From: Bacillota bacterium
GTDB lineage: Bacteria > Bacillota > Clostridia > Christensenellales > UBA1242
DNA: 64,000 nucleotides
Assembly (NCBI GenBank): GCA_009784185.1
Contig: WRCD01000001.1
Coordinates: forward strand, 129,698-193,697
Direction of reading: 5' to 3'
Position 1 is the first letter of the stretch; each line of letters begins with the position of its first letter. This document shows, piece by piece, positions 23,529-46,916 of the stretch. The notes below the pieces were generated by a model, which saw only the letters and a list, made by a program, of their open reading frames with translations, ran no database searches and was not told the origin of the DNA. The translations under genes were made by a program, and so were the position numbers.

Positions 23529-23580
23529 ATATGGCAAATCATTAGGAGCAAAACTTTTTTAAAAACTTTTGATTTTAGTA

Positions 23581-23611
23581 TTGACAAGTTCGGGGGGGGG
23601 GGCGCTATAAT
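23581..23611 (+). promoter_or_regulatory. Sigma-70-type promoter with a G11 tract in a 19-bp spacer (duplicate of the 22061 module)
   Basis: TTGACA (23581-23586), 19 bp containing G11 (23592-23602), then TATAAT (23606-23611). About 40 bp upstream and the 5'UTR are near-identical to the 22028-22124 module. Confidence 0.7.
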
Positions 23612-23641
23612 GGATGTATAAACCAAAAGGAGAAAAATAAA

Positions 23642-24214: not shown

Positions 24215-24216
24215 AC

Positions 24217-24259
24217 CACCCCGCCCTTCGGGCACCCCTCCAAGGAGGGGAATTTTTTT
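24217..24259. repeat. GGGGAATT-family repeat, single unit (terminator-like)
   Basis: CCACCCC-[GCCC-ttc-GGGC]-A-[CCCCTCC-aa-GGAGGGG]-AATTTTTTT, immediately after the stop at 24214. Confidence 0.85.
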
Positions 24260-24296
24260 GAGTTCTATCCAGGGGGTTGCCAGCAATGATAACTGG

Positions 24297-25175: not shown

Positions 25176-25195
25176 GGGCTTGCTCCTAGTATAAT

Positions 25196-25242
25196 AATTC
25201 CCCTCTATAAGAGGGGTGCCGAGTTTACGAGGCGGGGTGTGG
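25196..25242. repeat. GGGGAATT-family repeat, single unit (opposite orientation)
   Basis: AATTCCCCTCTataAGAGGGGT-GCCGAGtttaCGAGGC-GGGGTGTGG, between divergent genes. Confidence 0.85.
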
Positions 25243-25328
25243 TTGCCATTTAATGGAGGCCAACTTAATTCTACAACAAACGCTTAAAATTTACTACTGT
25301 TTTTAATTCATTGTGATATAATTAAGGC

Positions 25329-26648
25329 ATGAAAATGGTTATATCGCCTACATTAAACAGGCTTGCAGAAGTTTTTGACGGAATCAATGCTCCGCTATAT
25401 ATTGTAGGAGGTTATGTTCGTAATGCAGCCCTTGGATTTGTTGATACCGATGTTGACATATGCAGCAGCCTTAGGCCGGAGCAGGTAAAGAGTTTGCTGA
25501 AAGGTACGGGATTTACTTCAACCGTTGTGCACGCTAAGCTGGGTACGCTGCTCATTAAAAGCAGGTTTGCGCCCGAGAGTTATGAGTATACGCCGTTCAG
25601 AGCTGAGGATTATCCTGAGGGCGGATGTCATATGCCCGATAAGGTTGAATTTATAACAGACGTCACCGAGGACGCAAAGCGGCGTGATTTTACTTCTAAT
25701 TGCATTTATTACGAGATTAAGTACGGAGTAATAGTTGACCCATACGGCGGATTGGCGGACATAAAGAGCCGCCTGTTAAAGTGTATAGAGAAGCCGGAAT
25801 TTGTGTTTAAGAGTGACGGGCTTAGAATACTGCGGTTGTTGCGTATGGGTGCGGAGCTCGGTTTTGACTTGGAAGAAAACTCTTTTAGGGTGGCTAAAAA
25901 ATTGGTGTCTCAACTAAAAGACATTACCCGCGAGCGGTTTCATAAAGAAGTGCTTGGTATGCTATATGCAGATTACAGGTATACGGGGCTGTCTAAAAAA
26001 TTTGCTCATTTTACGGCCATGCAGAATGTAACTGCGCTTGGCGCATGGAGTTATGTGCTGCCGGAGCTTTTAAAGTACGACGGCATTAAACGCGCTAAGA
26101 ATAACCCGAATGAAATTAAATTAGCTAAGGATGCCTTTGTAACGCTTAAACAGGCACCGCCGGAATTGCGGCTTTCTGCCTTGGTTTATGACTTGTCGGT
26201 TGCGCTTGGCAACTTAAGAGTAAACTACCAGTTTATAGATGATGTTTTGGGGCTTAAGGGCCTGATGATTAAAAAGGACGAAATAAAGGCTGCAACCGAC
26301 CTGCTGCGTGCAAGCAGACAGGCCAAAACCGGGTTTGCCAGTCCGCGCGACGAAACGATTTTTATTGCCAAAAACTATAAGTTAATGCCGAAGCTGCTGG
26401 AGTGGCAGCGTATAAGGGGGATACCCAGCAACCTTGCGGTAAGGTATAATATTATGGTGGTTGAATCGGCTCCCATGACCTTAAAAGACCTGGCCATAAA
26501 CGGCAACGACATAAAAGAACACTTTCCGTTAATGAAGCCGAGGCTATATTCGTTTTTCCTAAATATGTGTCTGGAGGTGGCAGCAGCCAGGCCGGAACTG
26601 AATACAAAGAAAAATCTGATAAAATTTATAAAGGATAACAACCTGTAA
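25329..26648 (+). CDS. cca: CCA-adding enzyme / poly(A) polymerase family tRNA nucleotidyltransferase
   Basis: Motifs GGYVRN, DTDVDI and RRDFTSN of class II nucleotidyltransferases. Confidence 0.8.
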   Translation: MKMVISPTLNRLAEVFDGINAPLYIVGGYVRNAALGFVDTDVDICSSLRPEQVKSLLKGTGFTSTVVHAKLGTLLIKSRFAPESYEYTPFRAEDYPEGGCHMPDKVEFITDVTEDAKRRDFTSNCIYYEIKYGVIVDPYGGLADIKSRLLKCIEKPEFVFKSDGLRILRLLRMGAELGFDLEENSFRVAKKLVSQLKDITRERFHKEVLGMLYADYRYTGLSKKFAHFTAMQNVTALGAWSYVLPELLKYDGIKRAKNNPNEIKLAKDAFVTLKQAPPELRLSALVYDLSVALGNLRVNYQFIDDVLGLKGLMIKKDEIKAATDLLRASRQAKTGFASPRDETIFIAKNYKLMPKLLEWQRIRGIPSNLAVRYNIMVVESAPMTLKDLAINGNDIKEHFPLMKPRLYSFFLNMCLEVAAARPELNTKKNLIKFIKDNNL

Positions 26649-27934
26649 TGGATGCAGTTTTAATTTTAGTAATTATATCTGTAATAATGTCCGGTATTTG
26701 TGCGCTGCTTTTGGCGGCGCAATATCTTATTAAACCAAGACGCAATATGGATATAGGGGATGCAGTTAAAAAAACAGAACAGCAGTTTAGCCAACTGCTT
26801 GGAATGGTAGAGCGTGAAAACGAGCATATGCTGCGGATATACCGCGAGAGTAATGCTCTGCTGGCGGAGAGAATCAGCCAGTATAATACTGAAGTTAGTA
26901 AAAGCGTGGAGAATGCGGGCAAGTTTCAGCGTGAGGCTTTTGAGGGCGTGGAAAACAGATTAAAAGAGGTGCTTAGCAGCAATGAGACCAGGTTGGAGCG
27001 TATAAACAAAAACGTAACCGAAAACTTAAGCAAAATGCAGCAGACGGTAGACGAAAAGCTGAACGAGACGCTGGAGAAGAGGCTGAACCAGAGTCTGCTT
27101 GGAATAAGTGAGCGGCTGGAGTCTGTGTTTAAGGGGCTGGGTGAAATGCAGCAGCTGGCGGCCGGCGTGGGTGACCTTAAAAAAGTGCTCTCAAATGTAA
27201 AGGTGCGCGGCACCTGGGGCGAGGTTCAGCTTGGCAACCTGTTGGAGCAGATGCTTGCGCCCAATCAATATGCGGCACAGGTTAAGCTTGGCAAAGACGA
27301 AAATAGCAGGGTAGACTATGCTGTGGTTATGCCCGGCAAGGATGACGGCGTGGTATATCTGCCGCTGGACTCTAAATTCCCTATGGACAGTTATGAGCGG
27401 CTGGTGCTGGCAAGCGAGGCGGGTGATATAGCCGCAATTGAAAAAGCCGCAAAAGAAATAGAGTCAAGAGTTAAGAACGAGGCAAAGAAAATATCCGCGG
27501 CATATATTAAAACGCCTGTTACAACCGATTTTGCAATAATGTATATTCCTATAGAAGGGTTGTTTGCCGAGGTTGTAAAAAAGCAGGGGCTGATAGAACA
27601 GCTGCAATCCGAGTACAGGATAATGGTATGCGGGCCCACTACGCTATCTGCGTTGCTAAACAGTTTGCAAATGGGCTTTAGAACTATGGCAATTGAGCAG
27701 AGAAGCAGTGAGATTTGGGCGCTTCTATCTATGTTTAGAAGCGAGTTTGGCAAGTTTACCGATTTGCTGGCTAAAACCCAAAAGAAGTTATCGGAAGCAA
27801 GTAGCACAATTGAAGATGCAACTAAAAAGACCGCTAAAATAAGCAAGGGACTTGCCGCCGTACAAACCTTTGAGCCAAAAGGAAACGAGAGTTTTAATTT
27901 AGTCAACTTTGGGGATGACGAGAAAGAAGAATAA
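26648..27934 (+). CDS. rmuC: DNA recombination protein RmuC
   Basis: N-terminal TM helix, a long coiled coil and a C-terminal RmuC-type region (VDYAVVMPG...YLPLDSKFP...MYIPIEG). The start overlaps the cca stop. Confidence 0.8.
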   Translation: MDAVLILVIISVIMSGICALLLAAQYLIKPRRNMDIGDAVKKTEQQFSQLLGMVERENEHMLRIYRESNALLAERISQYNTEVSKSVENAGKFQREAFEGVENRLKEVLSSNETRLERINKNVTENLSKMQQTVDEKLNETLEKRLNQSLLGISERLESVFKGLGEMQQLAAGVGDLKKVLSNVKVRGTWGEVQLGNLLEQMLAPNQYAAQVKLGKDENSRVDYAVVMPGKDDGVVYLPLDSKFPMDSYERLVLASEAGDIAAIEKAAKEIESRVKNEAKKISAAYIKTPVTTDFAIMYIPIEGLFAEVVKKQGLIEQLQSEYRIMVCGPTTLSALLNSLQMGFRTMAIEQRSSEIWALLSMFRSEFGKFTDLLAKTQKKLSEASSTIEDATKKTAKISKGLAAVQTFEPKGNESFNLVNFGDDEKEE

Positions 27935-27978
27935 GTATATATAGTGTAACTTTGCGTAATCTAATTTAGGCGCTTTAT

Positions 27979-28028
27979 CACATACCCCGTCGGCTTCGCC
28001 GCCACCCCTTTATCTTAAAGGGGAATTT
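27979..28028. repeat. GGGGAATT-family repeat, single unit
   Basis: CACATACCCC-[GTCGGC-ttc-GCCGCC]-A-[CCCCTTT-atctt-AAAGGGG]-AATTT. The hairpin B stem carries compensatory changes. Confidence 0.8.
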
Positions 28029-28058
28029 ATCTGGGGTAGCGTTGCAGGGTGGTTTAGA

Positions 28059-29405
28059 TTGTACTTTAAAGGTTACGCTTTTTTGTTTAGTTTAGTTGTG
28101 CTCGTATTGTTTACGGGTTTTTCAGGCTTTAGTTCGGTTGGGGCAAGCAACGAGCCGCATGAGGATTTTGTTTTAAGATACGACGGCAAAAAGCATATAT
28201 ACGATGTAGCTAAAAACGAGCCCAAGAGCAGCATCCATACCATTGAGCACCGGTATCAGAGGTTTGGCAAAAAAGGAACTCCTGCCGAGCGTGCGGAACT
28301 GCTGGGGAGGGTAATGGAACTGGGATTCGGCTATGAAGAGGCATTTAAATATGTATTTAAAAACTTTGATGTATTTGTTGCGGGGGTAATTAAAGGCGTT
28401 AGCCGCCCAAGCAAGGACTCTAAGATTTCTTTCTATCCCAACAGGAGCGATATGTTTGATATATCCCGGGAGCAGGTTGGTTTTGTGGTAAACAAGGAGC
28501 AGCTTTACAAAAAAATGTACATAGAATACTGTAAGACCGGCAAAATTGATATAGAAATTATTCCGCAAGTATTGGAGCCGCGGTACACATATGACGAGCT
28601 GAGTGCGGTAGACAACCTAAAGGCAAAGTTTGGCACATATTACGGAAGCAGCGGAGCGGACAGGCGGCACAACATTAACCTGGCTCTCAGGCAGCTTAAC
28701 GGTATGCGGATAGAGCCGAATGAAGAATACTCATTTAACAAAATCACCGGCAGACGGACAGAAGCCAACGGATACAGAAAAGCAAATATAATTATCAACG
28801 ACGAATATGTAGAAGGGTACGGCGGCGGGGTTTGCCAGGTGAGCACTACCCTATATAACGCATTGCTTCTTTCAGGCGCAGATATAACCGAGGTAAGGCG
28901 GCATTCGTTGCCCAGCAGTTATGTAGCGCTTGGGTTTGATGCAATGGTATCTCACGGCACAAGTGACCTTAAGTTTATAAACCGCAGCAGCCTGCCTATG
29001 TTTATAAAAGCATACAGCACTCAAAACAATATCTACATTGAAGTATACGGCGCTTCAAGCGAACCTGATTTTAAAATTAAACGCATTACCGAGATAATAA
29101 GAAAAATATCTCCTGCGCCGAGTAAAACCATTATTGATACAGCCGGAGAACATTCTGGCCTTGTAAACTATACAGACGAAACAGCAGTGCTGCATTACGC
29201 AAAGGACGGATATGAGGTAAACGCGTATCTGGAGTATTACATTGGCAGTACAATGGTAGGCAGAAAATTAATCCGGCATGAAACATACAAGCCGCAGCAA
29301 GGAGTGTACGTGCGCGGGGCTAAGAAGCGTCCTTTGCCACCACTGGAATCGGAGCCGCTAACTCAAATAATTCCCCTCTTAGAAAGAGGGGTGGCAGGCG
29401 TTTAG
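28059..29405 (+). CDS. VanW family protein
   Basis: N-terminal signal/TM and the VanW core (EPNEEYSFNKITGRRT...GYGGGVCQVSTTLYNA). The last ~12 codons (IIPLLERGVAGV) are encoded by a repeat element. Confidence 0.85.
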   Translation: MYFKGYAFLFSLVVLVLFTGFSGFSSVGASNEPHEDFVLRYDGKKHIYDVAKNEPKSSIHTIEHRYQRFGKKGTPAERAELLGRVMELGFGYEEAFKYVFKNFDVFVAGVIKGVSRPSKDSKISFYPNRSDMFDISREQVGFVVNKEQLYKKMYIEYCKTGKIDIEIIPQVLEPRYTYDELSAVDNLKAKFGTYYGSSGADRRHNINLALRQLNGMRIEPNEEYSFNKITGRRTEANGYRKANIIINDEYVEGYGGGVCQVSTTLYNALLLSGADITEVRRHSLPSSYVALGFDAMVSHGTSDLKFINRSSLPMFIKAYSTQNNIYIEVYGASSEPDFKIKRITEIIRKISPAPSKTIIDTAGEHSGLVNYTDETAVLHYAKDGYEVNAYLEYYIGSTMVGRKLIRHETYKPQQGVYVRGAKKRPLPPLESEPLTQIIPLLERGVAGV

Positions 29406-33908: not shown

Positions 33909-36164
33909 GTGTGTTTTGAAGTGGGCATAATTTTAAAGTATCTCAAAAAGTTTTGGCCGGCATTAGTTATATGTCTGGTATTGTTGTTTGGTCAGGCCAT
34001 GTGCGACCTTTTTTTGCCTAATTACATGGGGCAGATTGTAAATGTGGGTATTCAGCAAGGCGGAATAGAAAGAAGCACGCCTGAGGCGCTTAGTGAGGAC
34101 GGCTACGATTTTTTATCTGAATTTATGACGGCAGAACAAAAGCTTGTGACGGCGGACAATTACACGCTGGTGTTAAGCGGTATGGAAACCGCGGAGCAGC
34201 TTGATAAATATCCTGCCTTAAGCAATAAAAATGTTTATGTGTTAAACACGGTGTTAACCATATCCGAAACCGAACTGGATGTTATGTTTGGGCAGGCGTG
34301 TTTTACATTTGTGCTGTGGCTGCAAAGTACGGAGTTTGCAGATTTTCTTGTGTTTAACGGTTTTGAGCTGCCCGAAACCGGCGGCTCGGCTGTATTGGAT
34401 ATAGCCGAGATGTATGGTCCGATGATGGGGTTAATTACCTTATATAAAATGCAAACTGCCGGCTTTGGGCAGTTTCAGGCGGCGGCCGGCAACATAGACG
34501 CTGTTATGCTTAACACGACCGGTGCAAGCTTTACAAAGATGCTGTATCGGGAGCTGGGTATTGATGTAGGGGCAATTCAGACCAACTACATTTTGCTGAA
34601 AGGACTGGTTATGCTGCTTATCAGCCTTGCGGGCGGGGCTGCAAGCATATTGGTCGGATTCTTTTCAAGCAGGCTGGCTGCGGGTTTTGCCAAAAAACTC
34701 AGAGCCGATTTGTTTACAAAAGTGCAGAGTTTTGGCAATGCCGAATTTGACAAGTTTAGCACAGCAAGCTTAATTACCCGCACCACAAACGATATTACTC
34801 AGATACAGTTTGCGCTGGTGCTGGGGGTGAGGTTTTTATTATATGCACCGGTGCTTGGAATAGGGGCCATAATAATGGCGCTCAGTAAATCGATTGGTAT
34901 GGGATGGATAGTGGCCGTTGCGCTAGGAGCACTGCTGATACTTATGGCAGGGCTTTTGCTTATAGCACTGCCAAAGTTTAAAATAATGCAAAAGCTTGTA
35001 GACAAAGTTAATCTGGTAGCAAGAGAGAACTTAAGCGGCTTACTTGTAGTACGTGCATTCAGCACTCAGCCAAGAGAAGCCGGCAGATTTGAAGACGCCA
35101 ACTATAATCTGACCAAAACCATGCGGTTTACTCAGCGCACAATGGCACTTTTTATGCCTGCGCTAATGCTTTTAATGAACCTGCTTGCAGTAGTTACAAT
35201 CTGGGTGGGAGCACATCAGGTAGCGGCAAGCAGTATTCAGGTTGGAGACATGATGGCGTTTATGCAATATGCAATGCTGGTTGTTATGGCGTTTATTATG
35301 GTGGCGGCAATATTTATTATGATACCGCGGGCACTGGTCAGCAGCAAGCGTATTGCCGAAGTGTTGAATACGCCGCTCAGCGTAATTGACCCGGCAGAGC
35401 CCGTAAGCTTTGATAACAGTAAAACAGGCGTGGTTGAGTTTAAAGGTGTGGGTTTCAGGTATTCCGGAGCGGAATCGGAGGTTTTGTCTGATATAAGTTT
35501 TGTGGCGGAGCGCGGCAAAACAACAGCAGTTGTTGGCGGAACAGGTTCGGGCAAGTCCACTTTAATAAACCTGATACCGCGCTTTTATGATGTTACGGCA
35601 GGGCAAGTGCTGGTAAACGGTGTGGATGTACGCAAAGTGCTTCAGCATGATTTGCGCAACAGCATTGGTTATGTGCCTCAAAAAGGGATGCTGCTTTCAG
35701 GAACGGTTGAGTCTAATTTAAAATACGGAAGAACGGATGCCGGCAACGAAATTGTTGATACGGCACTTGAAATTGCTCAGGGTGCGGAGTTTGTAAACAA
35801 GCTGCCTCACAAAACAGAAGCACCTGTTGCGGCCGGAGGCACAAATTTTTCGGGCGGGCAGAAGCAGCGTCTGTCAATTGCCAGAGCGCTTGTGAAGGAG
35901 GCTCCGATTTATATATTTGATGATAGTTTTTCGGCGCTGGATTACAAAACCGATGCGGCACTTAGAGAGGCATTAGCAGAAAATGCAAAGGGCAGCACTG
36001 TTATTATTGTGGCACAAAGAGTGGCTACAATCAGAAATGCCGACCAGATTATTGTGCTGGATAAGGGTAAGCTAGTGGGCAAGGGCACACACAAGCAGCT
36101 TATTAAAAACTGCAGCGTATACAAAGAAATTGCACTGTCACAGTTAAATAAGGAGGAGTTGTAA
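33909..36164 (+). CDS. ABC exporter, fused permease/ATPase (heterodimer partner 1) with a long extracytoplasmic loop after TM1
   Basis: Six-TM ABC_membrane region plus an NBD (Walker A GGTGSGKST, signature FSGGQKQR, Walker B IYIFDDSFS). About 170 aa are inserted between TM1 and TM2. The start is GTG at 33909 or 33921. Confidence 0.85.
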   Translation: MCFEVGIILKYLKKFWPALVICLVLLFGQAMCDLFLPNYMGQIVNVGIQQGGIERSTPEALSEDGYDFLSEFMTAEQKLVTADNYTLVLSGMETAEQLDKYPALSNKNVYVLNTVLTISETELDVMFGQACFTFVLWLQSTEFADFLVFNGFELPETGGSAVLDIAEMYGPMMGLITLYKMQTAGFGQFQAAAGNIDAVMLNTTGASFTKMLYRELGIDVGAIQTNYILLKGLVMLLISLAGGAASILVGFFSSRLAAGFAKKLRADLFTKVQSFGNAEFDKFSTASLITRTTNDITQIQFALVLGVRFLLYAPVLGIGAIIMALSKSIGMGWIVAVALGALLILMAGLLLIALPKFKIMQKLVDKVNLVARENLSGLLVVRAFSTQPREAGRFEDANYNLTKTMRFTQRTMALFMPALMLLMNLLAVVTIWVGAHQVAASSIQVGDMMAFMQYAMLVVMAFIMVAAIFIMIPRALVSSKRIAEVLNTPLSVIDPAEPVSFDNSKTGVVEFKGVGFRYSGAESEVLSDISFVAERGKTTAVVGGTGSGKSTLINLIPRFYDVTAGQVLVNGVDVRKVLQHDLRNSIGYVPQKGMLLSGTVESNLKYGRTDAGNEIVDTALEIAQGAEFVNKLPHKTEAPVAAGGTNFSGGQKQRLSIARALVKEAPIYIFDDSFSALDYKTDAALREALAENAKGSTVIIVAQRVATIRNADQIIVLDKGKLVGKGTHKQLIKNCSVYKEIALSQLNKEEL

Positions 36165-38000
36165 ATGAGTAAAGCTCCTCAGAGACCGGGCGGCAGAGCC
36201 CCAAACACCGGCGAAAAGCCGAAAGATTTTAAAGGCACTGCTAAAAAGCTGATAAAAATACTGGGCGAATATAAGTTTACGCTTATGATAGTATTTTCGT
36301 TTGCCGTGCTGTCTACCGTATTTGCAATAGTTGGACCTAAAATTCTGGGAATGGCCACAACCCGGCTGTTTGAAGATATAATGGGCATGATAGCGGGAAC
36401 TGCAACCGGCATAGACTTTGGCTATATCGGGCAGATTATTTTAATTTTAATCGGGCTGTATATTGTAAGCGCAACGTTTTCGTATATCCAGGGTTACCTA
36501 ATGGCTGGTGTAGCTATGAAAATAACACACAAATTACGTGAGCGCATATTTGATAAGATTCACAAATTGCCCATAGGGTATTATGATAAAAAAAGCCATG
36601 GAGATGTGCTAAGCCACCTGACTAACGATGTGGATGCCGTAAGCCAGAGTTTGAGCAACAGCATAACTCAGATAATAACCAGTGTAACCATGCTTTTGGG
36701 TATCACGATTATGATGTTTACAATCAGTTGGGAAATTACCCTGGTTACATTGGCTACGCTTCCAATTTCGTTTCTGATACTGGCATTTATAATGAAGCGC
36801 AGCCAGAAGCATTTTGTAGCGCAACAAAAACATCTTGGGCTTGTTAACGGGCTTGTAGAAGAGATGTACGGCAACCATACGCTGGTAAAGGCGTTTAACG
36901 GGCAGGCTCAGGCCAGGCAGGAGTTTGACGAGAAAAACAATGTACTGTACAAATCCGCGTGGAAAAGTCAGTTCTTTACCGGGCTAATGATGCCGATTAT
37001 GCTTTTTATAGGTAACATCAGTTATGTAATAGTCTGTATTATGGGCGGCAGTTTTGCGGCAGCCGGCAGGATTGCGGTTGGAGATATTCAGGCGTTTATA
37101 CAATACGTTCAGCAATTTCATCAGCCGGTGGCGCAGGTTGCCAATATCGGAAATGTGCTTCAGCAGACGCTGGCGGCAAGTGAGCGCGTGTTTACCTTTT
37201 TAGAGGAAAAAGACGAGAGCGTTGAAACAGCCGAAAGCAAAAAGCCCGAAAAGCTTTCAGGTGGAGTTGAGTTCAGGCAGGTTAAATTCGGCTATACGCC
37301 GGACAAAGAAATAATACATAACTTTTCCGTTAAAGTTAAGCCCGGGCAGAAGGTAGCAATAGTCGGTCCTACAGGCGCCGGCAAAACTACTCTTGTAAAA
37401 CTGCTTATGAGATTTTACGATATAAACAGCGGTGAGATACTGGTTGACGGTGTTAACATAAACGACTATAAACGAAACGATTTGCGGGCAAACTTTGGCA
37501 TGGTGCTGCAGGATGCGTGGCTGTATAACGACACGATTTGTAACAACATAAAGTACGGCAGACCCGATGCCGATAAAGAAATGGTGCTTGCGGCCAGTGC
37601 GGCCGCTCAGAGCGACCATTTTATACGAACCTTACCGGACGGATACAATATGATACTTAATGAAGAAAGCAGCAACGTAAGCGCAGGTGAGCGGCAGTTG
37701 CTAACAATTGCACGCGCGCTGATTACCGACCCAAAGATTATGATATTGGATGAAGCCACAAGCAGCGTTGATACCAGAACCGAACTGTTAATTCAGAAAG
37801 CTATGGATAATCTTATAAAGAACCGCACCAGCTTTATAATAGCTCACCGGCTTAGCACAATCCGCAACGCAGATGTAATATTAGTGCTTAATGAAGGTGA
37901 TATAGTTGAGCAGGGCACACATGATGAACTTTTAGCAAAAGGCGGATTTTACGCCGAGTTATACAACAGTCAGTTTAAACATGGAATAATAGAAGAGTAA
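36165..38000 (+). CDS. ABC exporter, fused permease/ATPase (heterodimer partner 2)
   Basis: Walker A GPTGAGKTT, signature VSAGERQ, Walker B IMILDEATSS. It directly abuts the previous gene. Confidence 0.88.
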   Translation: MSKAPQRPGGRAPNTGEKPKDFKGTAKKLIKILGEYKFTLMIVFSFAVLSTVFAIVGPKILGMATTRLFEDIMGMIAGTATGIDFGYIGQIILILIGLYIVSATFSYIQGYLMAGVAMKITHKLRERIFDKIHKLPIGYYDKKSHGDVLSHLTNDVDAVSQSLSNSITQIITSVTMLLGITIMMFTISWEITLVTLATLPISFLILAFIMKRSQKHFVAQQKHLGLVNGLVEEMYGNHTLVKAFNGQAQARQEFDEKNNVLYKSAWKSQFFTGLMMPIMLFIGNISYVIVCIMGGSFAAAGRIAVGDIQAFIQYVQQFHQPVAQVANIGNVLQQTLAASERVFTFLEEKDESVETAESKKPEKLSGGVEFRQVKFGYTPDKEIIHNFSVKVKPGQKVAIVGPTGAGKTTLVKLLMRFYDINSGEILVDGVNINDYKRNDLRANFGMVLQDAWLYNDTICNNIKYGRPDADKEMVLAASAAAQSDHFIRTLPDGYNMILNEESSNVSAGERQLLTIARALITDPKIMILDEATSSVDTRTELLIQKAMDNLIKNRTSFIIAHRLSTIRNADVILVLNEGDIVEQGTHDELLAKGGFYAELYNSQFKHGIIEE

Positions 38001-38006
38001 AAAAAC

Positions 38007-38033
38007 AAAACCACGGGTAATCCGTGGTTTTTT
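38007..38033. terminator. Bidirectional hairpin terminator between convergent genes
   Basis: AAAACCACGG-gtaat-CCGTGGTTTTTT, between the stops at 38000 (+) and 38042 (-). Confidence 0.8.
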
Positions 38034-38041
38034 GTGCGGTG

Positions 38042-40537
38042 TTAAGCCTTAATGTTTGGTTGCTGCGGCAAATTTGGCGGGGCTTCGTTTCTGGTATGCA
38101 TTGGTTTTTTAAATACCAGATACAGGAAGCTGAACTGAACCATTATGATTGTAAACAATATTGCGGGCTGTCCAAGCGGGACGTATCCAAAGAAGTCCTG
38201 CGGTATGCTGAGCAGTGCTATTGTACAGCCCAGTGCCATTGAGCAGAATAATATTCCGCGGAACATATCCAGCGGCCTGCAGATTGCAAGCAGCATTATG
38301 AGGCCGGTAAACGCAACCGCGTAACTGCCCATGGTTTCGTACTGCCACCCGGTGCCAAGATAAATATCAAACAGGAAACAACCGAGGAAGGCTAAGAAGA
38401 ATATTGCTCCGCCGGGCAGGGCATTTTTAAAGATGGTTGCTAAAAACTTTCCTTTAATAGGAACGCTGCTTGGCTGGAGAGCTAAGAAGAAGCTTGGTAT
38501 TCCGATTGCAAAAATTTCTAACAGCATTAAGTGGTTTGGCGCAAACGGAAAGCTTATACCACGGTCGCCCGAGAACTGAGATATAATTACAAAACCTACA
38601 AGCGACATAATAAATATGGTTTTCATTAAGAACAGTGATGATGATTTGGTAATGTTGTTTACAACCCGCCGGCCCTCTGCAACAACGCTAGGTAAGGATT
38701 GAAAGTTGCTGTCCATTAATACCAGGTGGCTGACGTTTCTTGCTGCTTCACTTCCGCTTGCCATGGCTATGCTGCAGTCGGCGTCTTTAAGAGCCAAAAT
38801 GTCGTTTACTCCGTCGCCCGTCATGGCTACCTTGTAGTTGCTTGCTTTAAGCGCGCGCACCAGCACCGCTTTCTGTTCCGGACTGACCCGGCCGAACACA
38901 GTATACTTATCTGCTGCATCAATTACCTGCTGGTCTGAGAGGCCCGCAAGGCTGATATATTTATCGGCATCCGGAACTCCGCACCTCCGGCTTACTTCGC
39001 TTACGGTTATCGGGTTGTCACCAGATATTATTCGCACTTTAACATCGTTGCCCACAAACCACTTAATTGTAGCGGGGGCGTCTTCTCTTATGTGGTCTTG
39101 AATAACAATCAGCGCAACCGGTTTCATGCTGGCCGGCAGTTTTTCGCCCGATATTGCGGCGGCCGAATGCGTAACCAGCAATACTCTTTGCCCCTGTGCA
39201 CTATACTCTTTTACCAGCTTGTTTATTGCAATATCGTCTTCCTTAAGCAAAAAGTCCGGTGCCCCAAATGCGTAGGTGCCTGCTTCCTTAAGAGTTACGG
39301 CGCTGTATTTTCTTTCACTGCTGAACGGTATTTTTTTTGTTGCAGGGTATCTTGTATTTACGCCAAAATGAAGTTCAAGCGCCTGAGAGGTTTGATTTTT
39401 ATTGTCCAGTGCTTTAAGAATGCTTCCAAAAACAGTTTTAAACTTTTCCTCGTTGTAGCTGTTGTTTAATTTTACTACGCTGGTTACCTTCATTGTGCCG
39501 TCTGTTAGCGTACCGGTTTTATCAAGGCAAAGCATATTAACACGTGCCAGCATTTCAATTCCGTACAAGTCCTGAACGTAAGCGCGCTTGTTGGCAAGCT
39601 TAACCGCTCCAACCGCCAGGGCTACGCTGGTAAGTAAGAACATTCCCGCAGGTATCATTCCGATTATTGCGCCTGCGGTTTTAACCACAACGTCGCTGGT
39701 GCTTGGTAAAAAGGTGTAGTTAATGTAAAACATTACCACCCCAAGCGGAATAACCAGTGCGCCAATTACTTTAATAATCAGGCGCAAGCTATACATAAGC
39801 TCGGATTTAGCCTTTGCGTACCGCTTGGCTTTTTCGGCTAACGATACCGAGTAGCACGCACTTGCAACTTTCTCAACTCTTGCCACACAGTTTCCGCTGG
39901 ATACAAAGCTGCCGCCGTATAACATATCGCCCGTCTTTTTCTTAATTGCGTTTGGTTCACCGGTAAGCAGGCTTTCGTTTGCCTCCAGCTCGCCGGACAC
40001 AACCACGCAATCGGCGCTTATCTGATTACCATGTGTAAACAACACTATGTCATCTACAACCAGCTGGTTAACTGCCACAACCGTTTTTACGCCGTTTCTG
40101 ATAACCGTGGCGGTTGGTGCAGTGATTAACGAAATTTTGTCTATCTTGCGCTTTGCTCTAAACTCCTGCACAATACCGATAACCATGTTTGAGCATATTA
40201 TAAGTAAAAAGAACAGATTGGCGGCGGCACCCACCGCAATAAGCGCACCTGCCACAAAAAAACACAGCAGGTTAAAAAACGTGCATACGTTTTGGATTAC
40301 TATGCCAAGATATGTCTTTTTATTTTTGTTTACGGTAACATTTACAAAGCCGCCCAAAGTTCTGGCGGAGACCTGCTCATCGTTCAGCCCTATGCCGGGG
40401 TCAGCACTGATTCGTTCCAGTGCGTCCCAGCTCCAGCCTTTTTTGCGGCGCGCGCGCTTGGCGGCTCCTGCAGCCTTGCTGCTAAGGCGCGGTGCCATAA
40501 CCGGCTTAGCCTCTGCAACTACTTTGTTCTCTTCCAC
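38042..40537 (-). CDS. Cation-translocating P-type ATPase (E1-E2, HAD superfamily)
   Basis: TGEP (LLTGEPNAI), the phosphorylation site CLDKTGTLT, MTGDGVNDILALKDAD and about 10 TM segments. Confidence 0.88.
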   Translation of the reverse strand: MEENKVVAEAKPVMAPRLSSKAAGAAKRARRKKGWSWDALERISADPGIGLNDEQVSARTLGGFVNVTVNKNKKTYLGIVIQNVCTFFNLLCFFVAGALIAVGAAANLFFLLIICSNMVIGIVQEFRAKRKIDKISLITAPTATVIRNGVKTVVAVNQLVVDDIVLFTHGNQISADCVVVSGELEANESLLTGEPNAIKKKTGDMLYGGSFVSSGNCVARVEKVASACYSVSLAEKAKRYAKAKSELMYSLRLIIKVIGALVIPLGVVMFYINYTFLPSTSDVVVKTAGAIIGMIPAGMFLLTSVALAVGAVKLANKRAYVQDLYGIEMLARVNMLCLDKTGTLTDGTMKVTSVVKLNNSYNEEKFKTVFGSILKALDNKNQTSQALELHFGVNTRYPATKKIPFSSERKYSAVTLKEAGTYAFGAPDFLLKEDDIAINKLVKEYSAQGQRVLLVTHSAAAISGEKLPASMKPVALIVIQDHIREDAPATIKWFVGNDVKVRIISGDNPITVSEVSRRCGVPDADKYISLAGLSDQQVIDAADKYTVFGRVSPEQKAVLVRALKASNYKVAMTGDGVNDILALKDADCSIAMASGSEAARNVSHLVLMDSNFQSLPSVVAEGRRVVNNITKSSSLFLMKTIFIMSLVGFVIISQFSGDRGISFPFAPNHLMLLEIFAIGIPSFFLALQPSSVPIKGKFLATIFKNALPGGAIFFLAFLGCFLFDIYLGTGWQYETMGSYAVAFTGLIMLLAICRPLDMFRGILFCSMALGCTIALLSIPQDFFGYVPLGQPAILFTIIMVQFSFLYLVFKKPMHTRNEAPPNLPQQPNIKA

Positions 40538-40714
40538 TGGTATTCCCTTTTCAAGTAATAAGCAATTATATCATATTGTACCAACCCGCCGCAAACAAAT
40601 GCGACAAGCACATATTAAGAAAGTATTGAATTTTTACAAGCCAGGTGTTGATAAACTAACTTAAACATAGAGAAAATTAGCCACAGAATTCTTCTTTTAA
40701 CCTAGTAAAATCTA

Positions 40715-40745
40715 TTGACTTTTTGGCAGGGGGGGGGGGTATACT
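40715..40745 (+). promoter_or_regulatory. Sigma-70-type promoter with a G11 tract in a 19-bp spacer
   Basis: TTGACT (40715-40720), 19 bp containing G11 (40729-40739), then TATACT (40740-40745). The methyltransferase start lies 18-24 nt downstream. Confidence 0.65.
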
Positions 40746-40762
40746 GGTTAGAAGATTGGAGA

Positions 40763-41851
40763 ATGTTTGTGGAAAAACAAAGGAAAGTGGTAACGAAAAT
40801 CAAATATGAAAGTGGCAAGGTTACTCCTCTTGGCACAGAGCCAAATGATGAATGCTATACTGCAATGCAGGATATTGTAAACGAGTTAGCACAATATGGA
40901 CATGATGGCCGGTTTAGGGGCAAGGACATTATATGTCCGTGTGATTGGGATATTTTAGAAGATGAGGAAGTCTACTCACTTCGTGTTGATTTTGACGAAG
41001 ACATCCATGCGCACACTAACGATGTTAAACTAATTAGTTATGAGAAGCAAAATGGTGCGTTACATAATGTCAGAGTTGAGAAAGAGGAAATAGACAAGTT
41101 TTTAAGAGAAAGAACCAGGTGTAACTTTCTACGAACCCTGATTGAGAACGCAAACACATGGGGAATAAAAAGTGTGTCTGTAAGTGGCTATAATCCGGCA
41201 ACAGGAAAAGGTAAAAAGTTTCAGGATGTTGATTATTCACAATATGATATTTGTATCACCAATCCGCCATTTTCGCGGTATGCCGAATTTATTGAAACCT
41301 TAGTAAAAACTGAAATTGACTTCATAATTCTTGCTCCATTCCTAAACAGGGTAAATCCTTGTGTTGGTATTCCATTATTACTAAAACAATGCTACCTTGG
41401 ATACGGAAGAAAATTAAGAATGAATTTTTTCAACCCCACGATTGACAATGAATACAACACAAAACTAGTTGCTTGTGATTGGATAACAACATTCTATGAC
41501 GCACAGGAGGCGGTAGACAAATCAAGATTGTTAAACGGTATCAAGTACGAGGACTATGAAGACGAGTATATGGTAATGGAAAACATGACAATGAAGGATG
41601 GCACTCATCCAATAAGAGTGAACAACTTTAGAGCAATTCCGGACGACTACTATGGATGGATGTTCTGCTCCATAGGAGTGCTTGATATATTGAGCAACGA
41701 AGAATTTGAATGGTACGGCACAGGGTTCAAGGGCTATTTAAATACAAACAGGCACATCAGTCCGTTTGAGCACAGAGCTTCAAATGAAATGGTGTCAAAT
41801 GCAAACACCAAAGGGTTTCACGGTGTAGTGATAAGACGAAGGAGAATATGA
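40763..41851 (+). CDS. N6-adenine DNA methyltransferase, EcoRI-methylase-like family
   Basis: NDECYTAMQDIVNEL...FRGKDIICPCDWD and DICITNPPFSRYAEFIETLVK...DFIILAP. NPPF is motif IV of amino-methyltransferases, and the layout matches my recollection of the PF13651 family. The start is ATG 40763 or GTG 40769 (GGAG at 40758). Confidence 0.65.
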   Translation: MFVEKQRKVVTKIKYESGKVTPLGTEPNDECYTAMQDIVNELAQYGHDGRFRGKDIICPCDWDILEDEEVYSLRVDFDEDIHAHTNDVKLISYEKQNGALHNVRVEKEEIDKFLRERTRCNFLRTLIENANTWGIKSVSVSGYNPATGKGKKFQDVDYSQYDICITNPPFSRYAEFIETLVKTEIDFIILAPFLNRVNPCVGIPLLLKQCYLGYGRKLRMNFFNPTIDNEYNTKLVACDWITTFYDAQEAVDKSRLLNGIKYEDYEDEYMVMENMTMKDGTHPIRVNNFRAIPDDYYGWMFCSIGVLDILSNEEFEWYGTGFKGYLNTNRHISPFEHRASNEMVSNANTKGFHGVVIRRRRI

Positions 41852-42963
41852 AAATGAAGCTAACGGTAAAGGCAATAATTGAAATGCTTGAAAGCGGCAA
41901 ATTGCAAACTGAGCAAACAACGCAAAGGCAATTCATTTATAACTCTATAACTAAAAAATTAGAAGATGGAGAAATTACAAAGGCCGGCAATGTTTTAAAA
42001 TCAATATTGCAGTATAAAATTCAATTGCCTGCACTATATTTTTGGGAGCGAGACGGCAAGTATAATGTTCATGATGGCAAGCAAAGAATTTTAAGCATCC
42101 GTTATTTTGTTAAGCCGACAAGAGAGATTAATGTTATAACAAGAATAAATGGCAGAGAAGCCAGCTATATAAGTCTGTCGGAAGAACAAAGGAAGGAGCT
42201 GCTAGAGTATGAGTTTGATATCGTTGTTGCGGCCGGCGAACAGGAGAAAGAAGAAACAACGTTTGATTTGATAAACACGAACGCTGTGCCACTAACAGAA
42301 TACGAAAGTTTGCGCGGTATGTTTTACGGCACATTTTTATACGAGTTTGAGCAATATATAGAATCCAAATCTAAAGTTGTTGATGCTGTAAAAGGTGTAG
42401 GCAGAGGCGAGCAGGCAAAACTGTTCTTGTATAACTGTTTTGAGTTGTTGGGGGAAAAAGTAGCAGACAGGAAAATTAGGACACTGCTGAGACATGTTAG
42501 AAATTCATCGTTTGATGCAAAGACATACAAGATGGAAGAAACAATAGCAGTGTTTAGTGAAGTGTCAAAAATATTAGGTGTTAGTGACGAGAAGGCACTG
42601 GGCGTTGCTGCCTTTATAGTTGGAAAGGGATACGACAAGGACATGGTCTGTGATTATTTTAGGCGAATAGTACGCAAAAAAAATGACGTAAAAAGCTGGG
42701 ATGTATATGAGCACTTTAGGGTTGCCATAAACAATTTAATAAACAACAATATTGAGTGCGACGGCAAAAGGAAATTTGCATCGGAAGATAAAGATGTTTT
42801 ATATGGAAGGTCGCAAAAATGTGCGGGCTTAAACTGTAAAGAAACAAATTACAAAAAGCTGGAAGTTGACCACATAAAGAAATGGAGTGAAGGTGGCCCA
42901 ACGGTGCTGGACAATGCTAGACTTCTCTGCAAGTCGTGCAATGCAAGTGAAAAATATAATTAA
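41848..42963 (+). CDS. DUF262 (ParB-like NTPase, DGQQR motif) fused to a C-terminal HNH nuclease
   Basis: TTQRQF...LPALYFWERDGKYNVHDGKQRILSIRYF...TFDLINTNAVPLTEYE is the DUF262 pattern. The C-terminus CAGLNC...LEVDHIKKWSEGGPTVLDNARLLCKSCN is a Cys4 HNH. The ATG overlaps the methyltransferase TGA (ATGA). Confidence 0.7.
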   Translation: MKMKLTVKAIIEMLESGKLQTEQTTQRQFIYNSITKKLEDGEITKAGNVLKSILQYKIQLPALYFWERDGKYNVHDGKQRILSIRYFVKPTREINVITRINGREASYISLSEEQRKELLEYEFDIVVAAGEQEKEETTFDLINTNAVPLTEYESLRGMFYGTFLYEFEQYIESKSKVVDAVKGVGRGEQAKLFLYNCFELLGEKVADRKIRTLLRHVRNSSFDAKTYKMEETIAVFSEVSKILGVSDEKALGVAAFIVGKGYDKDMVCDYFRRIVRKKNDVKSWDVYEHFRVAINNLINNNIECDGKRKFASEDKDVLYGRSQKCAGLNCKETNYKKLEVDHIKKWSEGGPTVLDNARLLCKSCNASEKYN

Positions 42964-42964
42964 C

Positions 42965-42993
42965 AAAAAGCAGCTGGTTAATAGCTGCTTTTT
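42965..42993. terminator. Bidirectional hairpin terminator
   Basis: AAAAAGCAGCT-ggttaat-AGCTGCTTTTT, between the stops at 42963 (+) and 42997 (-). Confidence 0.8.
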
Positions 42994-42996
42994 AAT

Positions 42997-45870
42997 TTAC
43001 TGTGCTTCTGCTCGTATTACTTCCACCGGCTGCTTGCGGGCTATCCTTAATATCGGCAATGTTATGGAAATTGCTACACCTGCAACGGTTACGGCGGCCA
43101 TCAGCAATACCTGCCGTACGCTGAATGCAACTATGCTGTACATCTCGGCAATCTGCCCCAGCTGTGACACAAAGAATTCGTTAAGGAAGAAGTAGCCTAG
43201 ATAGCATGAGACACTTGCAAGGATTATCATAATTAGTGCAATAAACGCGCCCTCGGTTATAAATATACCTGCAATATCTTTCTGGCGGGCGCCGAGGCTG
43301 CGTAATATACCAATGTCTTTTTTCCTTGCATTAATAGAGGCCGCTATAAACGAATAGGTCAGCAGAACCGAAAACAGTGTAAATACTATTGCGGACAAAC
43401 TGAATACGCCTACAAACAAACTGAACATATTGTTAAGAAAATAAATTTCCTGTGCGCTGCTGCTCCATATTACAAAACTGAAAATCCTGTCCGGGGCATC
43501 CTGTTCCTGGCTTGGTGTTGTAAACTTGCCGCTGCTGTTTAAAGTGTTTAGCAGCTGCATACGCTCCTGATATGTATCTGCCGGCACCAGGATATTGCCT
43601 ATAGGATAAATAATAAGCCGGTCATAAAAGTTTTGGGTTGCGTAAAAACACGGACCCAAATCGAGGTAGACTGCTACAATTTCATAACCACTGAGCTCTG
43701 CTTGTAAATTAACACCGCCGATATTGCGGTCTACCTTAAAGTTTATGTAGGCTCCGCCGCTGCTTATTCCCAATTCATCCATAATAGCAGCAAAGTCAAC
43801 AGTATTAATATTGCTGCTGTCCACAGTATATAAGGCCTGAAGCTCGCTTGGCAATAAATCAAGAAGCAACCTTACATCCACCACTACTTGTTTCTTGTTG
43901 TAGCCGGGTTCGTTCGGGTTATATGGGGCAAGGTCTGCCTCGGTAAATCCGTTTATAGGAATTGTATTTGTATACCAATACGGATATAGTCCGTCCGACC
44001 TGAAAAAGCTATCCATAGCGGTGTGGTTGGGTGCGTGAGTTACTGTTTGCCCTGTGGTTGAACTCTGGCCGGGCAAGGTGAGGGATAATTCAATTCCGGT
44101 TTGCAGATACAGCTTGCTGCTGTGCCTCATTAAATTGTGATAATAACCGGGCAGTGCATAATAATTGTTGAGGTATGTACTCCATGCGTTTGCTGCCTGC
44201 GGCCATACAGCTTTTTGTTCAGATGTGGCGGGAGTGGTCTGGCGCACAGTAGGCATCAGGAGCGCATATGGGCTAAGGTCAAAATCTATCATGCCCACAA
44301 TACGCATTGTACGCCACCGGGTGTGGTCATCGTTAGAGTTTGGAAACTGATGTTCGGCCCAGGAAGTGCCGCCTCTGTCATAGCCTTCCCAAATGGCGCG
44401 TTCATAAATTTGTGAAAACTCGGTCAGTTTTGTAACGCTTCCCGGCGTGCCTGCCGGCGTAACTACTCCATATAGTCTTTCTATGCTGGTTGTTCCGTCT
44501 ATAATCAGTTCAATGCCGTATCGCAGATACCGCTCAAACATAAAGTTGGTTATAACAACCTCATTAAAGTTAGCCGGCCATCTGCCTGCGGATAGTGTTA
44601 GCCCCAGGGCTTCGGGAGAGTCGGTTTCAACAACGCCCTGCACAACGGTGCCCAAAAAATTGTAATACGGAATTAATGTGGGCTGAAAAACATGGTTGGG
44701 GTTGGCGCCGTTAAACGGCAGCTGATATTTTACCGCGTGCGGCAGATTAAGTTTTTTAAATTCGTCAAGATGCTCCGGCTCAATTATGCGGCGCTCCTGG
44801 CTTGGCACGAATCCTTCTTCCTTGGTTTCCATCATTGCAAGCGGCACAAACGGCAGGCCCGACCGCTCAATTTCCTGCTGCATTACATTGTTTACATTAA
44901 ATTGAGCCACCATGTCGGCAAAACCGAAAAACGCAATTGCAAACATAGACAGGCATATTGTAAACAGCACCCGCACCCATTTAGCGCGCATGCTCATCAG
45001 CGACAGTTTAAACGAAGACTTAAACGGCAGTTTTACTTTTGTGTCCAGGTTGATTGGGGCAGCGGCTGCCGGCCTAAGGGCTGCAGGTTTTGGCTTTGTG
45101 TTTTTAACCAGAACAACTTTTTTACCGGCGTTAAGAAGTTTGTCCAACTCTTTTTTATTAACCTTGTCAACGGATAATTTAACGGTTTCGTTTGTGCCGT
45201 CACCGTGATAGGCGGCTGATATTTTTCCGTCAGACAGTTCAATAATCCGGTCTGCATAAGTATGAGCAGAATCCAGGTCGTGACTGATAACTATAACCAG
45301 ATTTGTTTTTGATAACTGCTGTAAAAGATTGAATATTTCTTTGCTGGTTACACTGTCCAGGTTTCCGGTGGGCTCATCCGCTAAGATTATTTTAGGGTTT
45401 TTAATTAGCGCACGTGCAATTGCAACACGCTGCTTCTGTCCGCCCGATACACCTCTGGCGTAGCGGTTTTCAAAGCCGGCCAGCCCAACCTTATCTAATG
45501 CTGCCGCAATCTGTGCTGCTGCGGCCTCCTGCTGCCCGATTTCAAGTGCAAGGCTCAGGTTCTGCCCGATAGTGTATTTCTCAATTATATGAAATTCCTG
45601 AAACACAAAGCCGATATTCAAAGCGCGGTATGCGTCACGCTCATTAGCGGAAAAATCTTTGGTTGACTTACCATTGACCTTAAGCTCTCCGCTGTCGTAG
45701 CTATCCAACAGACCAAGCATGTTTAATAAGGTAGACTTTCCGCTGCCGGATTTGCCCACAATAAAAACTAAGCCGGTTTCAGGCAAACTAAAACTAACAC
45801 CCTTAAGCGCGTCAACGTTGCGCCCGGTTTTACTAACGTATGATTTATGTAAATTGATAAACTCAATCAT
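42997..45870 (-). CDS. MacB-like ABC transporter, fused ATPase + FtsX-type permease with a large extracytoplasmic domain
   Basis: N-terminal NBD (GKSGSGKST, VSGGQKQR, ILADEPT). C-terminal FtsX region (RKKDIGILRSLGARQKDI plus TM helices). Confidence 0.85.
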   Translation of the reverse strand: MIEFINLHKSYVSKTGRNVDALKGVSFSLPETGLVFIVGKSGSGKSTLLNMLGLLDSYDSGELKVNGKSTKDFSANERDAYRALNIGFVFQEFHIIEKYTIGQNLSLALEIGQQEAAAAQIAAALDKVGLAGFENRYARGVSGGQKQRVAIARALIKNPKIILADEPTGNLDSVTSKEIFNLLQQLSKTNLVIVISHDLDSAHTYADRIIELSDGKISAAYHGDGTNETVKLSVDKVNKKELDKLLNAGKKVVLVKNTKPKPAALRPAAAAPINLDTKVKLPFKSSFKLSLMSMRAKWVRVLFTICLSMFAIAFFGFADMVAQFNVNNVMQQEIERSGLPFVPLAMMETKEEGFVPSQERRIIEPEHLDEFKKLNLPHAVKYQLPFNGANPNHVFQPTLIPYYNFLGTVVQGVVETDSPEALGLTLSAGRWPANFNEVVITNFMFERYLRYGIELIIDGTTSIERLYGVVTPAGTPGSVTKLTEFSQIYERAIWEGYDRGGTSWAEHQFPNSNDDHTRWRTMRIVGMIDFDLSPYALLMPTVRQTTPATSEQKAVWPQAANAWSTYLNNYYALPGYYHNLMRHSSKLYLQTGIELSLTLPGQSSTTGQTVTHAPNHTAMDSFFRSDGLYPYWYTNTIPINGFTEADLAPYNPNEPGYNKKQVVVDVRLLLDLLPSELQALYTVDSSNINTVDFAAIMDELGISSGGAYINFKVDRNIGGVNLQAELSGYEIVAVYLDLGPCFYATQNFYDRLIIYPIGNILVPADTYQERMQLLNTLNSSGKFTTPSQEQDAPDRIFSFVIWSSSAQEIYFLNNMFSLFVGVFSLSAIVFTLFSVLLTYSFIAASINARKKDIGILRSLGARQKDIAGIFITEGAFIALIMIILASVSCYLGYFFLNEFFVSQLGQIAEMYSIVAFSVRQVLLMAAVTVAGVAISITLPILRIARKQPVEVIRAEAQ

Positions 45871-45980
45871 AACTGTATTATATCATGCAAGAAGCTAAAA
45901 AACAAAATATTAAAAATGTATAGTTTTCAATTTTCCGCTTGCAAGTTTGCAGTAAGTGTTGTATAATAGGGGAACCATTT

Positions 45981-46067
45981 GGAGAGGTACCGAAGCGGTC
46001 ATAACGGGGCGGTCTTGAAAACCGTTAGACGTAAGTCACGGGGGTTCGAATCCCTCCCTCTCCGCCA
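45981..46067 (+). tRNA. tRNA-Ser (anticodon UGA), CCA-encoded
   Basis: Acceptor stem GGAGAGG/CCTCTCC and anticodon loop CTTGAAA (TGA at 46016-46018). It has a long variable arm, a T-loop GGTTCGAATCC and a 3' GCCA. TTGCAA/TATAAT lie upstream. Confidence 0.9.
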
Positions 46068-46157
46068 ATGGCGACAGAGTTTGAACACCCGGGTTCAAAC
46101 GCAATTACCACCAGCCCGCCAAACTACATGGTGATAAAAATAAAAAGGAGAATAAAA

Positions 46158-46916
46158 ATGGCAGACAAAAAACTGGAAACAGAAATCAAAAAAGCCTTTG
46201 CTTTTATGGACGAAGGGAAAATTGATGAGGCAAAGGAAATTCTCTTAAACCTATGGGACGATAAAGAAAAGGAAAATGTAAAAATTCTGTGGGGGCTGGC
46301 TTGCACGTTTACGCCGGGTGTTGGAGTTAAATCATTTACCGATATAATCCAAAGCAAATCCCAAAGCATTTCCGCAGAAGAAAAGGAGCTTTACGACCAG
46401 CTGGGAACAACAAAATACTCTATGATTTTTGCAAGCATACTTATAAAGGACTACGAGCGTCTTGAATATTTTTGCGCAAACTTTAACAACAACATGAAAA
46501 CCCCTGTAAAAGAATTTCTTGACGTAACGGTAACAATTGGCGACAAACCGTTTACATATCTTGCGGCGGCAACAAACAACAATGATGAAATAGCAGTTAA
46601 AATACTGCTAAAGTACGGTGCATCTCCGCTAACACAGCACAACAACCGTCCGGCTGTGGTTACGGCAATTATGAGCGAAAAACTAGGCATTGCAGGGTTA
46701 ATGATGGAAGTGCCGGGTGTAGAAGACTTTGTGTTGAGTTATGCCGTTACCACGTATCCTATCAGGCAGGGCTTAATGGAGAGTGCTATTTATCAGTGCA
46801 GCGGAGCAACAGCCAAGTTTTTGTTAGACTATGGTGCGGACAAAAAAGCTGCGCTTGCTTATGCTAAGTCTAACAAGCACAAAAATATGTTTAAGTTTAT
46901 CAGGAATTTAAAATGA
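46158..46916 (+). CDS. Ankyrin-repeat protein
   Basis: The start has an AAAAGGAGA SD; the ORF-track start at 46068 abuts the tRNA and is rejected. ANK-like repeats: TYLAAATNNNDEIAVKILLKYGASPLTQHN and ESAIYQCSGATAKFLLDYGADK. Confidence 0.65.
   Translation: MADKKLETEIKKAFAFMDEGKIDEAKEILLNLWDDKEKENVKILWGLACTFTPGVGVKSFTDIIQSKSQSISAEEKELYDQLGTTKYSMIFASILIKDYERLEYFCANFNNNMKTPVKEFLDVTVTIGDKPFTYLAAATNNNDEIAVKILLKYGASPLTQHNNRPAVVTAIMSEKLGIAGLMMEVPGVEDFVLSYAVTTYPIRQGLMESAIYQCSGATAKFLLDYGADKKAALAYAKSNKHKNMFKFIRNLK

Follow-up and report, generated by a model that had tools for sequence, protein, structure and literature searches.

We report a promoter with a run of eleven G's (G11) in the spacer between its −35 and −10 hexamers, which lies upstream of a predicted two-gene Type II restriction-modification (R-M) operon of a Bacillota bacterium. 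It is located at positions 40715-40745 of the 64-kb stretch of DNA analysed here, which we refer to as the window. The feature is real and non-random. As assemblies that otherwise match vary in the length of the tract, we most likely deal with a mutational expression switch of a known kind that has found a new host and an unusual target. More specifically, we consider it probable (roughly 0.6) that slippage in the G tract makes this promoter phase-variable or graded, and that it controls the methyltransferase (M) and the nuclease (R) together.

According to this proposal, the element would be a sigma-A promoter (sigma-70-type) whose −35 and −10 hexamers are spaced by a G tract of hypermutable length. 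Slipped-strand mispairing at replication would gain or lose G's, yielding spacers of 19, 18, 17 bp and so on, and the changed spacing would alter the contact of RNA polymerase with both boxes, such that transcription is switched or graded. The target would be a Type II R-M operon with an EcoRI-family amino-methyltransferase as the first gene and a translationally coupled DUF262-HNH nuclease as the second, and a clonal population would hold cells with differing levels of restriction and methylation. The use of the element as the operon promoter, frequent and reversible switching, and a change of the methylome are inferred parts of this proposal.

Layout of the promoter

The promoter and the translation signal downstream of it comprise the following features, where L001 and L150 denote contigs from other assemblies of the same organism (see below):

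40715-40720, plus strand: −35 hexamer TTGACT, identical to TTGACA at five of six positions
40721-40739, plus strand: 19-bp spacer, consisting of TTTTGGCA and G11
40726, plus strand: polymorphic spacer base, G in the window, T in L001 and L150
40729-40739, plus strand: G11 homopolymer on the non-template strand, abutting the −10 hexamer
40740-40745, plus strand: −10 hexamer TATACT, identical to TATAAT at five of six positions
40758-40761, plus strand: Shine-Dalgarno sequence GGAG, read directly, 7 nt before the GTG at 40769

A direct reading of the window at 40715-40745 gives TTGACT, a 19-bp spacer and TATACT (full string atctaTTGACTttttggcaGGGGGGGGGGGTATACTggttagaagattGGAGaatgtttGTGgaaaaa), with the G11 tract abutting the −10 hexamer, exactly as a preliminary description of this DNA had stated. 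The tract thereby places a G at positions −13 and −14 of the promoter. The gap between the −10 hexamer and the start codon of the first gene measures 17 nt for an ATG at 40763 and 23 nt for a GTG at 40769, and the Shine-Dalgarno sequence and start sit 13-24 nt 3′ of TATACT. Spacer-type SSR phase-variable promoters are defined by a homopolymer of at least about 8-9 nt that separates a recognisable −35 from a recognisable −10 hexamer in front of a gene; this is the layout found here, with G11 between TTGACT and TATACT and a Shine-Dalgarno sequence and start codon downstream. Two other roles for the tract were considered and set aside: it is a single G11 run, which cannot make an intramolecular G-quadruplex, and its position before the expected start of transcription speaks against a role in the leader RNA.

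In the intergenic region (40538-40768), the TTGACT/TATACT pair is the top plus-strand promoter match among spacers of 15-20 bp, agreeing with the consensus at 10 of 12 positions, and the runner-up is TTGATA-18-GAAAAT at 40648-40677 with 9 of 12. It is conceivable that the operon is transcribed from another start such as this 9/12 match about 70 bp upstream, which would leave the poly-G run in the 5′ leader or make it irrelevant. We regard this as highly improbable, given that the −10 hexamer of the runner-up (GAAAAT) is poor, that the poly-G element scores higher (10/12) and shares its layout with two promoters of perfect consensus in the window, and that at least 118 loci elsewhere have this layout at promoter-like distances from start codons.

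Promoter spacers have an optimum of 17 bp and a canonical range of 16-18 bp. Spacers of 18 or 17 bp should consequently be stronger than one of 19 bp, so that transcription would be low or OFF with G11 (19 bp) and higher with G10 (18 bp). That 19 bp falls outside the canonical range counts against the proposal, as it would make the promoter weak or OFF in its consensus state.

The downstream restriction-modification operon

The promoter is followed by two co-oriented genes and a terminator, which are flanked by genes on the opposite strand:

38042-40537, minus strand: divergent P-type ATPase, flanking the operon
40769-41851, plus strand: EcoRI-family DNA methyltransferase, 360 aa, GTG start, NPPF catalytic motif
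41848-42963, plus strand: nuclease with a DUF262/GmrSD_N-like N-terminal and an HNH C-terminal domain
42965-42993: bidirectional intrinsic terminator hairpin with a 12-bp stem, closing the operon
42997-45870, minus strand: convergent ABC/FtsX gene, flanking the operon

The methylase matches PF13651 (EcoRI_methylase) with 71.5 bits (cutoff 26.4) and the PADLOC model MTase_II with an E-value of 9.5e-16. With these matches and its NPPF motif, it has the hallmarks by which Type II R-M methylases are recognized, that is, a SAM-dependent methyltransferase with a (D/N)PP(Y/F) motif; the family name and the motif also suggest m6A as its product. Its start is called at GTG 40769 (360 aa) in the NCBI, Logan and ENA annotations and at ATG 40763 (362 aa) in that of JGI, and its homologs start with MEK or MDK. 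The TTG at 40715, which appears as the start in the ORF track, is the beginning of the −35 hexamer; the preliminary description had already recognized this, and the gene calls and the homologs bear it out.

The nuclease shows an HNH domain (40.7 bits, cutoff 21.4), a weak DUF262/GmrSD_N match at its N-terminus and a full-length match to the PADLOC model REase_II (E 4.7e-11). It overlaps the methylase stop by 4 bp (ATGA), and other assemblies call it from an ATG at 41854 (369 aa). Its adjacent, co-oriented position, in a pair that is conserved in homologous loci, is likewise characteristic of Type II R-M systems, and the methyltransferase-nuclease pair that had been read from the translations is thus confirmed by PF13651, HNH/DUF262 and both PADLOC models. 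The 4-bp overlap between M and R and the terminator after the nuclease, which also serves the convergent ABC/FtsX gene, point to a compact M-then-R Type II R-M operon made up of methylase, nuclease and terminator. Like other Type II systems with an EcoRI-family (PF13651) methylase and an HNH nuclease, it combines Pfam and PADLOC matches above threshold, the NPPF motif and a conserved M-then-R pair; unlike them, its nuclease has a DUF262/GmrSD_N-like N-terminal domain.

The G+C content at 40-44 kb is 0.40-0.41, compared to a window mean of 0.45. No solved structures related by sequence to the R-M proteins were found, and a search of a phage collection for a phage origin gave no match. Just downstream of the ABC/FtsX gene, at 46068-46916, the window encodes an ankyrin-repeat protein, a type that is uncommon in bacteria.

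Several palindromes are rare in the window: GATC is extremely depleted (5 observed vs 93.7 expected), TCGA occurs 14 times where 58 are expected, and CTAG and GGCC are depleted as well. The loss of GATC points to long-term, GATC-specific restriction pressure that would have acted in the host lineage. For GAATTC, no significant depletion was found in the whole window (7 sites). Palindrome avoidance was therefore abandoned as a route to the recognition site, as GAATTC is not significantly depleted and the loss of GATC cannot be tied to the operon at 40769-42963. One of the seven GAATTC sites lies at 40686-40691, 24 bp upstream of the −35 hexamer of the EcoRI-family methylase promoter, which is either a coincidence or may be a site of self-methylation.

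Three poly-G promoters in the window

A homopolymer census of the 64-kb window yielded exactly three runs of ten or more G's (22075-22084, 23592-23602 and 40729-40739), and no runs of six or more C's on the plus strand. All three G tracts (3/3) match the pattern TTGAC-N(5-10)-G10-N(0-4)-TATAMT on the plus strand, for which 0.00 matches are expected by chance (100 dinucleotide-preserving shuffles). The other two represent a pair of twin promoters:

22061-22091, plus strand: first twin promoter, TTGACA-N8-G10-C-TATAAT, 19-bp spacer
23581-23611, plus strand: second twin promoter, TTGACA-N5-G11-CGC-TATAAT, 19-bp spacer

The twins have an upstream module of about 40 nt in common and drive small ORFs (22122-22745, 22814-23386 and 23642-24214), for which no Pfam, NCBIfam or PADLOC match was found. 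The promoter at 40715-40745 can be ruled out as a copy of these modules, as had been proposed before, since it has only the hexamers and the G run in common with them. Just upstream of the second twin promoter lies a perfect 26-nt inverted repeat (arms 23402-23427 and 23504-23529, 76 nt apart), each arm of which holds a palindrome, CCCCTCTATAAGAGGGG; candidate identities for the repeat are a large terminator, a MITE-like insert and an invertible segment. Elsewhere in the window, a single plus-strand ORF of 4202 aa (1878-14486) probably encodes a giant surface protein.

All three spacers measure exactly 19 bp despite their differing partitions (8+G10+1, 5+G11+3 and 8+G11+0). This constancy favours a reading in which the promoter is used, but the G tract is a structural element: about 19 bp would be the constitutive working state, in which the tract gives the spacer a shorter, A-like geometry and contributes half of an extended −10 through its G at −14, and length changes would be rare and neutral or mildly deleterious. 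We consider this unlikely, as a G at −14 takes one G and not eleven, and as tracts of G10-G19 are intrinsically slippery; the comparisons below add arguments on both sides.

Tract length in other assemblies

Other assemblies of the same organism were recovered by exact-protein look-ups, namely L001, an 11-kb Logan contig (SRR10512951), and L148-L150, which belong to a 207-kb ENA contig (ERZ27257304). Exact look-ups of the 362-aa (ATG) methylase product and of the 371-aa nuclease gave no match. L001 spans positions 34836-46009 of the window (11,174 bp) and L150 spans 26165-48001 (21,837 bp), each with one mismatch and one gap relative to the window. Both differences lie inside the spacer at 40721-40739, where G11 is replaced by G10 and the G at 40726 by T, such that L001 and L150 have an 18-bp spacer of TTTTGTCA and G10 in place of the 19-bp spacer of the window. 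L148 and L149, which cover window positions 18122-28214, show 100% identity, including the G10 and G11 tracts of the twin promoters. Over the approximately 29.9 kb compared in all, the chance that two random differences both land in the 19-bp spacer is about 4e-7. Since both do, the spacer is the single polymorphic spot between the assemblies.

The tract length thus differs between otherwise identical genomes, as is expected of an SSR promoter, with two alleles seen and a sequencing artefact being possible. That the sole polymorphism in about 30 kb falls in the spacer argues against the tract being a structural element of constant length. Conversely, the twin tracts are identical between assemblies, which is in line with a structural role and counts against a switch, as it means that such tracts are not visibly unstable everywhere. 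Furthermore, the length difference is linked to the substitution at 40726, 3 nt from the G run, and two alleles with a linked SNP fit two co-existing strains as well as they fit ongoing switching.

Short reads are known to suffer from miscalls in homopolymers and at adjacent bases, and the differences fall exactly where this chemistry errs. The tract might therefore be real but stable, with G11/G10 and the adjacent G/T being artefacts of sequencing or assembly. No more than two states are seen, the three assemblies may share samples or reads or stem from related samples, such that Logan and ENA may have assembled the same data, and a metagenome scan with the specific promoter pattern returned four unrelated promoters and no further alleles, and hence no more population data. 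We nevertheless hold an artefact to be quite improbable. Two different assemblers, each of which needs supporting k-mers for its output path, agree on T and G10; the assemblies agree exactly on the other G10 and G11 tracts and on an A9 run at 20592; and a substitution 3 nt from the run is atypical of a length-call error.

The heterogeneity in tract length on which the preliminary description had staked the switch is therefore upheld in part: G10 in two other assemblies stands against G11 in the window, but this amounts to two alleles with a linked SNP, from possibly shared reads and in an error-prone homopolymer.

Homologous restriction-modification modules

The methylase-HNH pair is conserved in the homologous loci L002-L011 and L145-L147. 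In L002-L011, which stem from other species, the module adjoins a phage-type integrase, and variable genes of a defence-like kind (SIR2, AAA_21/RloB, Fic, radical SAM) lie downstream as cargo; this arrangement hints at a mobile defence island in another species. A further methylase homolog with 73% identity, P0009, is an orphan methylase. No homopolymer was found upstream of the methylase in the homologous loci L002-L015 and L145-L147 (64-75% identity), and we thus reject the idea that the tract was inherited with the R-M module. Consequently, it arose in the host lineage or was contributed by it, and the poly-G promoter style is a trait of that lineage, as the twin promoters also indicate.

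The poly-G design in other genomes

One genome per species was scanned for a generic pattern of TTGACA, a spacer, ten or more G's and TATAAT. The pattern was found in at least 118 loci (L016-L133), with 123 matches among those listed. They come largely from metagenome-assembled genomes (MAGs) of many host-associated species (gut, rumen, termite gut); the matches listed include Christensenellaceae, Oscillospiraceae and other Clostridia, Bacilli/'Tenericutes' and Saccharibacteria, as well as Treponema, Selenomonadaceae, Streptobacillus/Sneathia and an isolate of Streptococcus infantis, together with an environmental minority, e.g. groundwater Chloroflexi, Dehalococcoidia and Planctomycetota. Some genomes have paralogous copies, for instance four in the Oscillospiraceae MAG CAZSIF01 and three within 8 kb in L096. 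In viral contigs, where matches were few, a G8 run abutting the −10 hexamer was found 7 times and a C8 run not once (0), and with a gap of 0-4 nt, G9 was found 11 times and C9 6 times.

Among the 123 matches listed, the tract abuts the −10 hexamer in 89 and places a G at −14 in 110, and the spacer measures 19 bp in 45, 20 bp in 28, 18 bp in 21 and 17 bp in 6. Both the usual position of the tract and the mode at 19 bp are what a structural element would lead one to expect. However, the scan pattern demanded at least ten G's, starting no more than 9 nt after the −35 hexamer; the most frequent combination (9 nt and G10) is a corner of the space so sampled, and the 19-bp mode may therefore partly be an ascertainment effect. 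The three 19-bp promoters of the window were not chosen by this pattern.

An ORF preceded by a Shine-Dalgarno sequence follows the promoter in 94 of the 123 matches listed, with a median start 55 nt after the −10 hexamer. An N-terminus resembling a signal peptide or transmembrane segment is present in 63 of these 94 ORFs (67%), compared to 171 of 725 control ORFs (24%) from the same loci (odds ratio 6.6, p 1.4e-16, for the matches listed). The Pfam families downstream of the matches listed comprise BspA-type LRR, DUF6273, Listeria-Bacteroides repeats, N-methyl pilins, camelysin and flagellin. Surface proteins, which make up the overwhelming majority of targets among the matches listed, are classic for phase variation and speak against a merely structural tract. 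A methyltransferase was found in none of 88 downstream genes among the matches listed, which makes the R-M operon an unusual target.

The poly-G spacer design thus recurs independently, together with classic targets of phase variation, which supports selection for the design. The same argument had been made from the window, and it gains strength from the at least 118 loci in which the design recurs across many species, with a preference for sites upstream of secreted proteins.

A more far-reaching reading, which we regard as doubtful, takes TTGACA-N(~9)-G(~10)-TATAAT as a distinct promoter class, widespread among the anaerobes of gut, rumen and termite gut, with a working geometry of about 19 bp, in which slippage by single G's grades the expression of surface-protein families and of a Type II R-M operon. 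A compact, A-like G tract that supplies the G at −14 would then make about 19 bp workable, and the class would span Clostridia, RF39-like Bacilli, Saccharibacteria, Treponema and Fusobacteria.

Relation to known systems and significance

Homopolymers in promoter spacers are a known cause of phase variation, as in Neisseria porA and opc or Mycoplasma vlp. The repeats are poly-G in Neisseria meningitidis porA, poly-C in opc, poly-A in Mycoplasma hyorhinis vlp and TA in Haemophilus influenzae hifA/B. As in these systems, the repeat described here lies between the −35 and −10 hexamers, where slippage would alter the spacing and hence transcription, and in the wider sample (matches listed) the targets are likewise mostly surface proteins. 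Unlike them, it is found in an uncultured Bacillota MAG rather than in a proteobacterial or mollicute pathogen, its spacer measures 19 bp (18 bp in the other allele) instead of 16-18 bp, its tract abuts the −10 hexamer, and its target is an R-M operon. To our knowledge, phase variation in gut commensals has been described mostly for invertible DNA segments and not for simple repeats.

Phase-variable R-M systems are widespread, and Type I and Type III systems with intragenic repeats have been described (PMC12707154). Our proposal resembles these phasevarions (Type III mod, Type I hsdS/hsdM) in that a hypermutable repeat is coupled to a DNA methyltransferase and heterogeneity of the methylome could follow (PMC12707154). 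It differs from them in that the repeat lies in the promoter and not in the reading frame, and in that the system is Type II-like with separate, co-transcribed M and R, both activities of which would vary together. Such joint switching could damage an unmethylated cell in which the operon is turned ON, an argument against the proposal. Another relative is the pilus of Bifidobacterium breve UCC2003, a Gram-positive gut commensal, for which a switch by poly-G slippage is reported (PMC9187656). Both cases would concern poly-G slippage in a gut Gram-positive; however, the B. breve tract is reported to be intragenic and to act by frameshift in the coding sequence (PMC9187656), whereas the one described here lies in a promoter spacer.

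For poly-G spacer promoters in gut Clostridia, we found no description in the literature searched, whose coverage was incomplete. What is new here is the uncultured Bacillota host, the proposed control of a complete Type II M-R operon at the level of its promoter and the recurrent 19-bp spacing, which is a concrete oddity of promoter geometry. Judging from the wider sample, the poly-G spacer design seems to be common among many uncultured host-associated bacteria, where it is mostly found upstream of surface proteins, and short-read metagenomes may hide a large and easily scored layer of repeat-based heterogeneity. If there is indeed a distinct promoter class, uncultured commensals would gain a layer of repeat-based phase variation for which descriptions to date come chiefly from pathogens. 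For the organism itself, if the tract switches, a whole R-M system would be varied at the promoter level in an uncultured gut Firmicute, giving rise to subpopulations that differ in their barriers to phages and DNA uptake and in their methylome.
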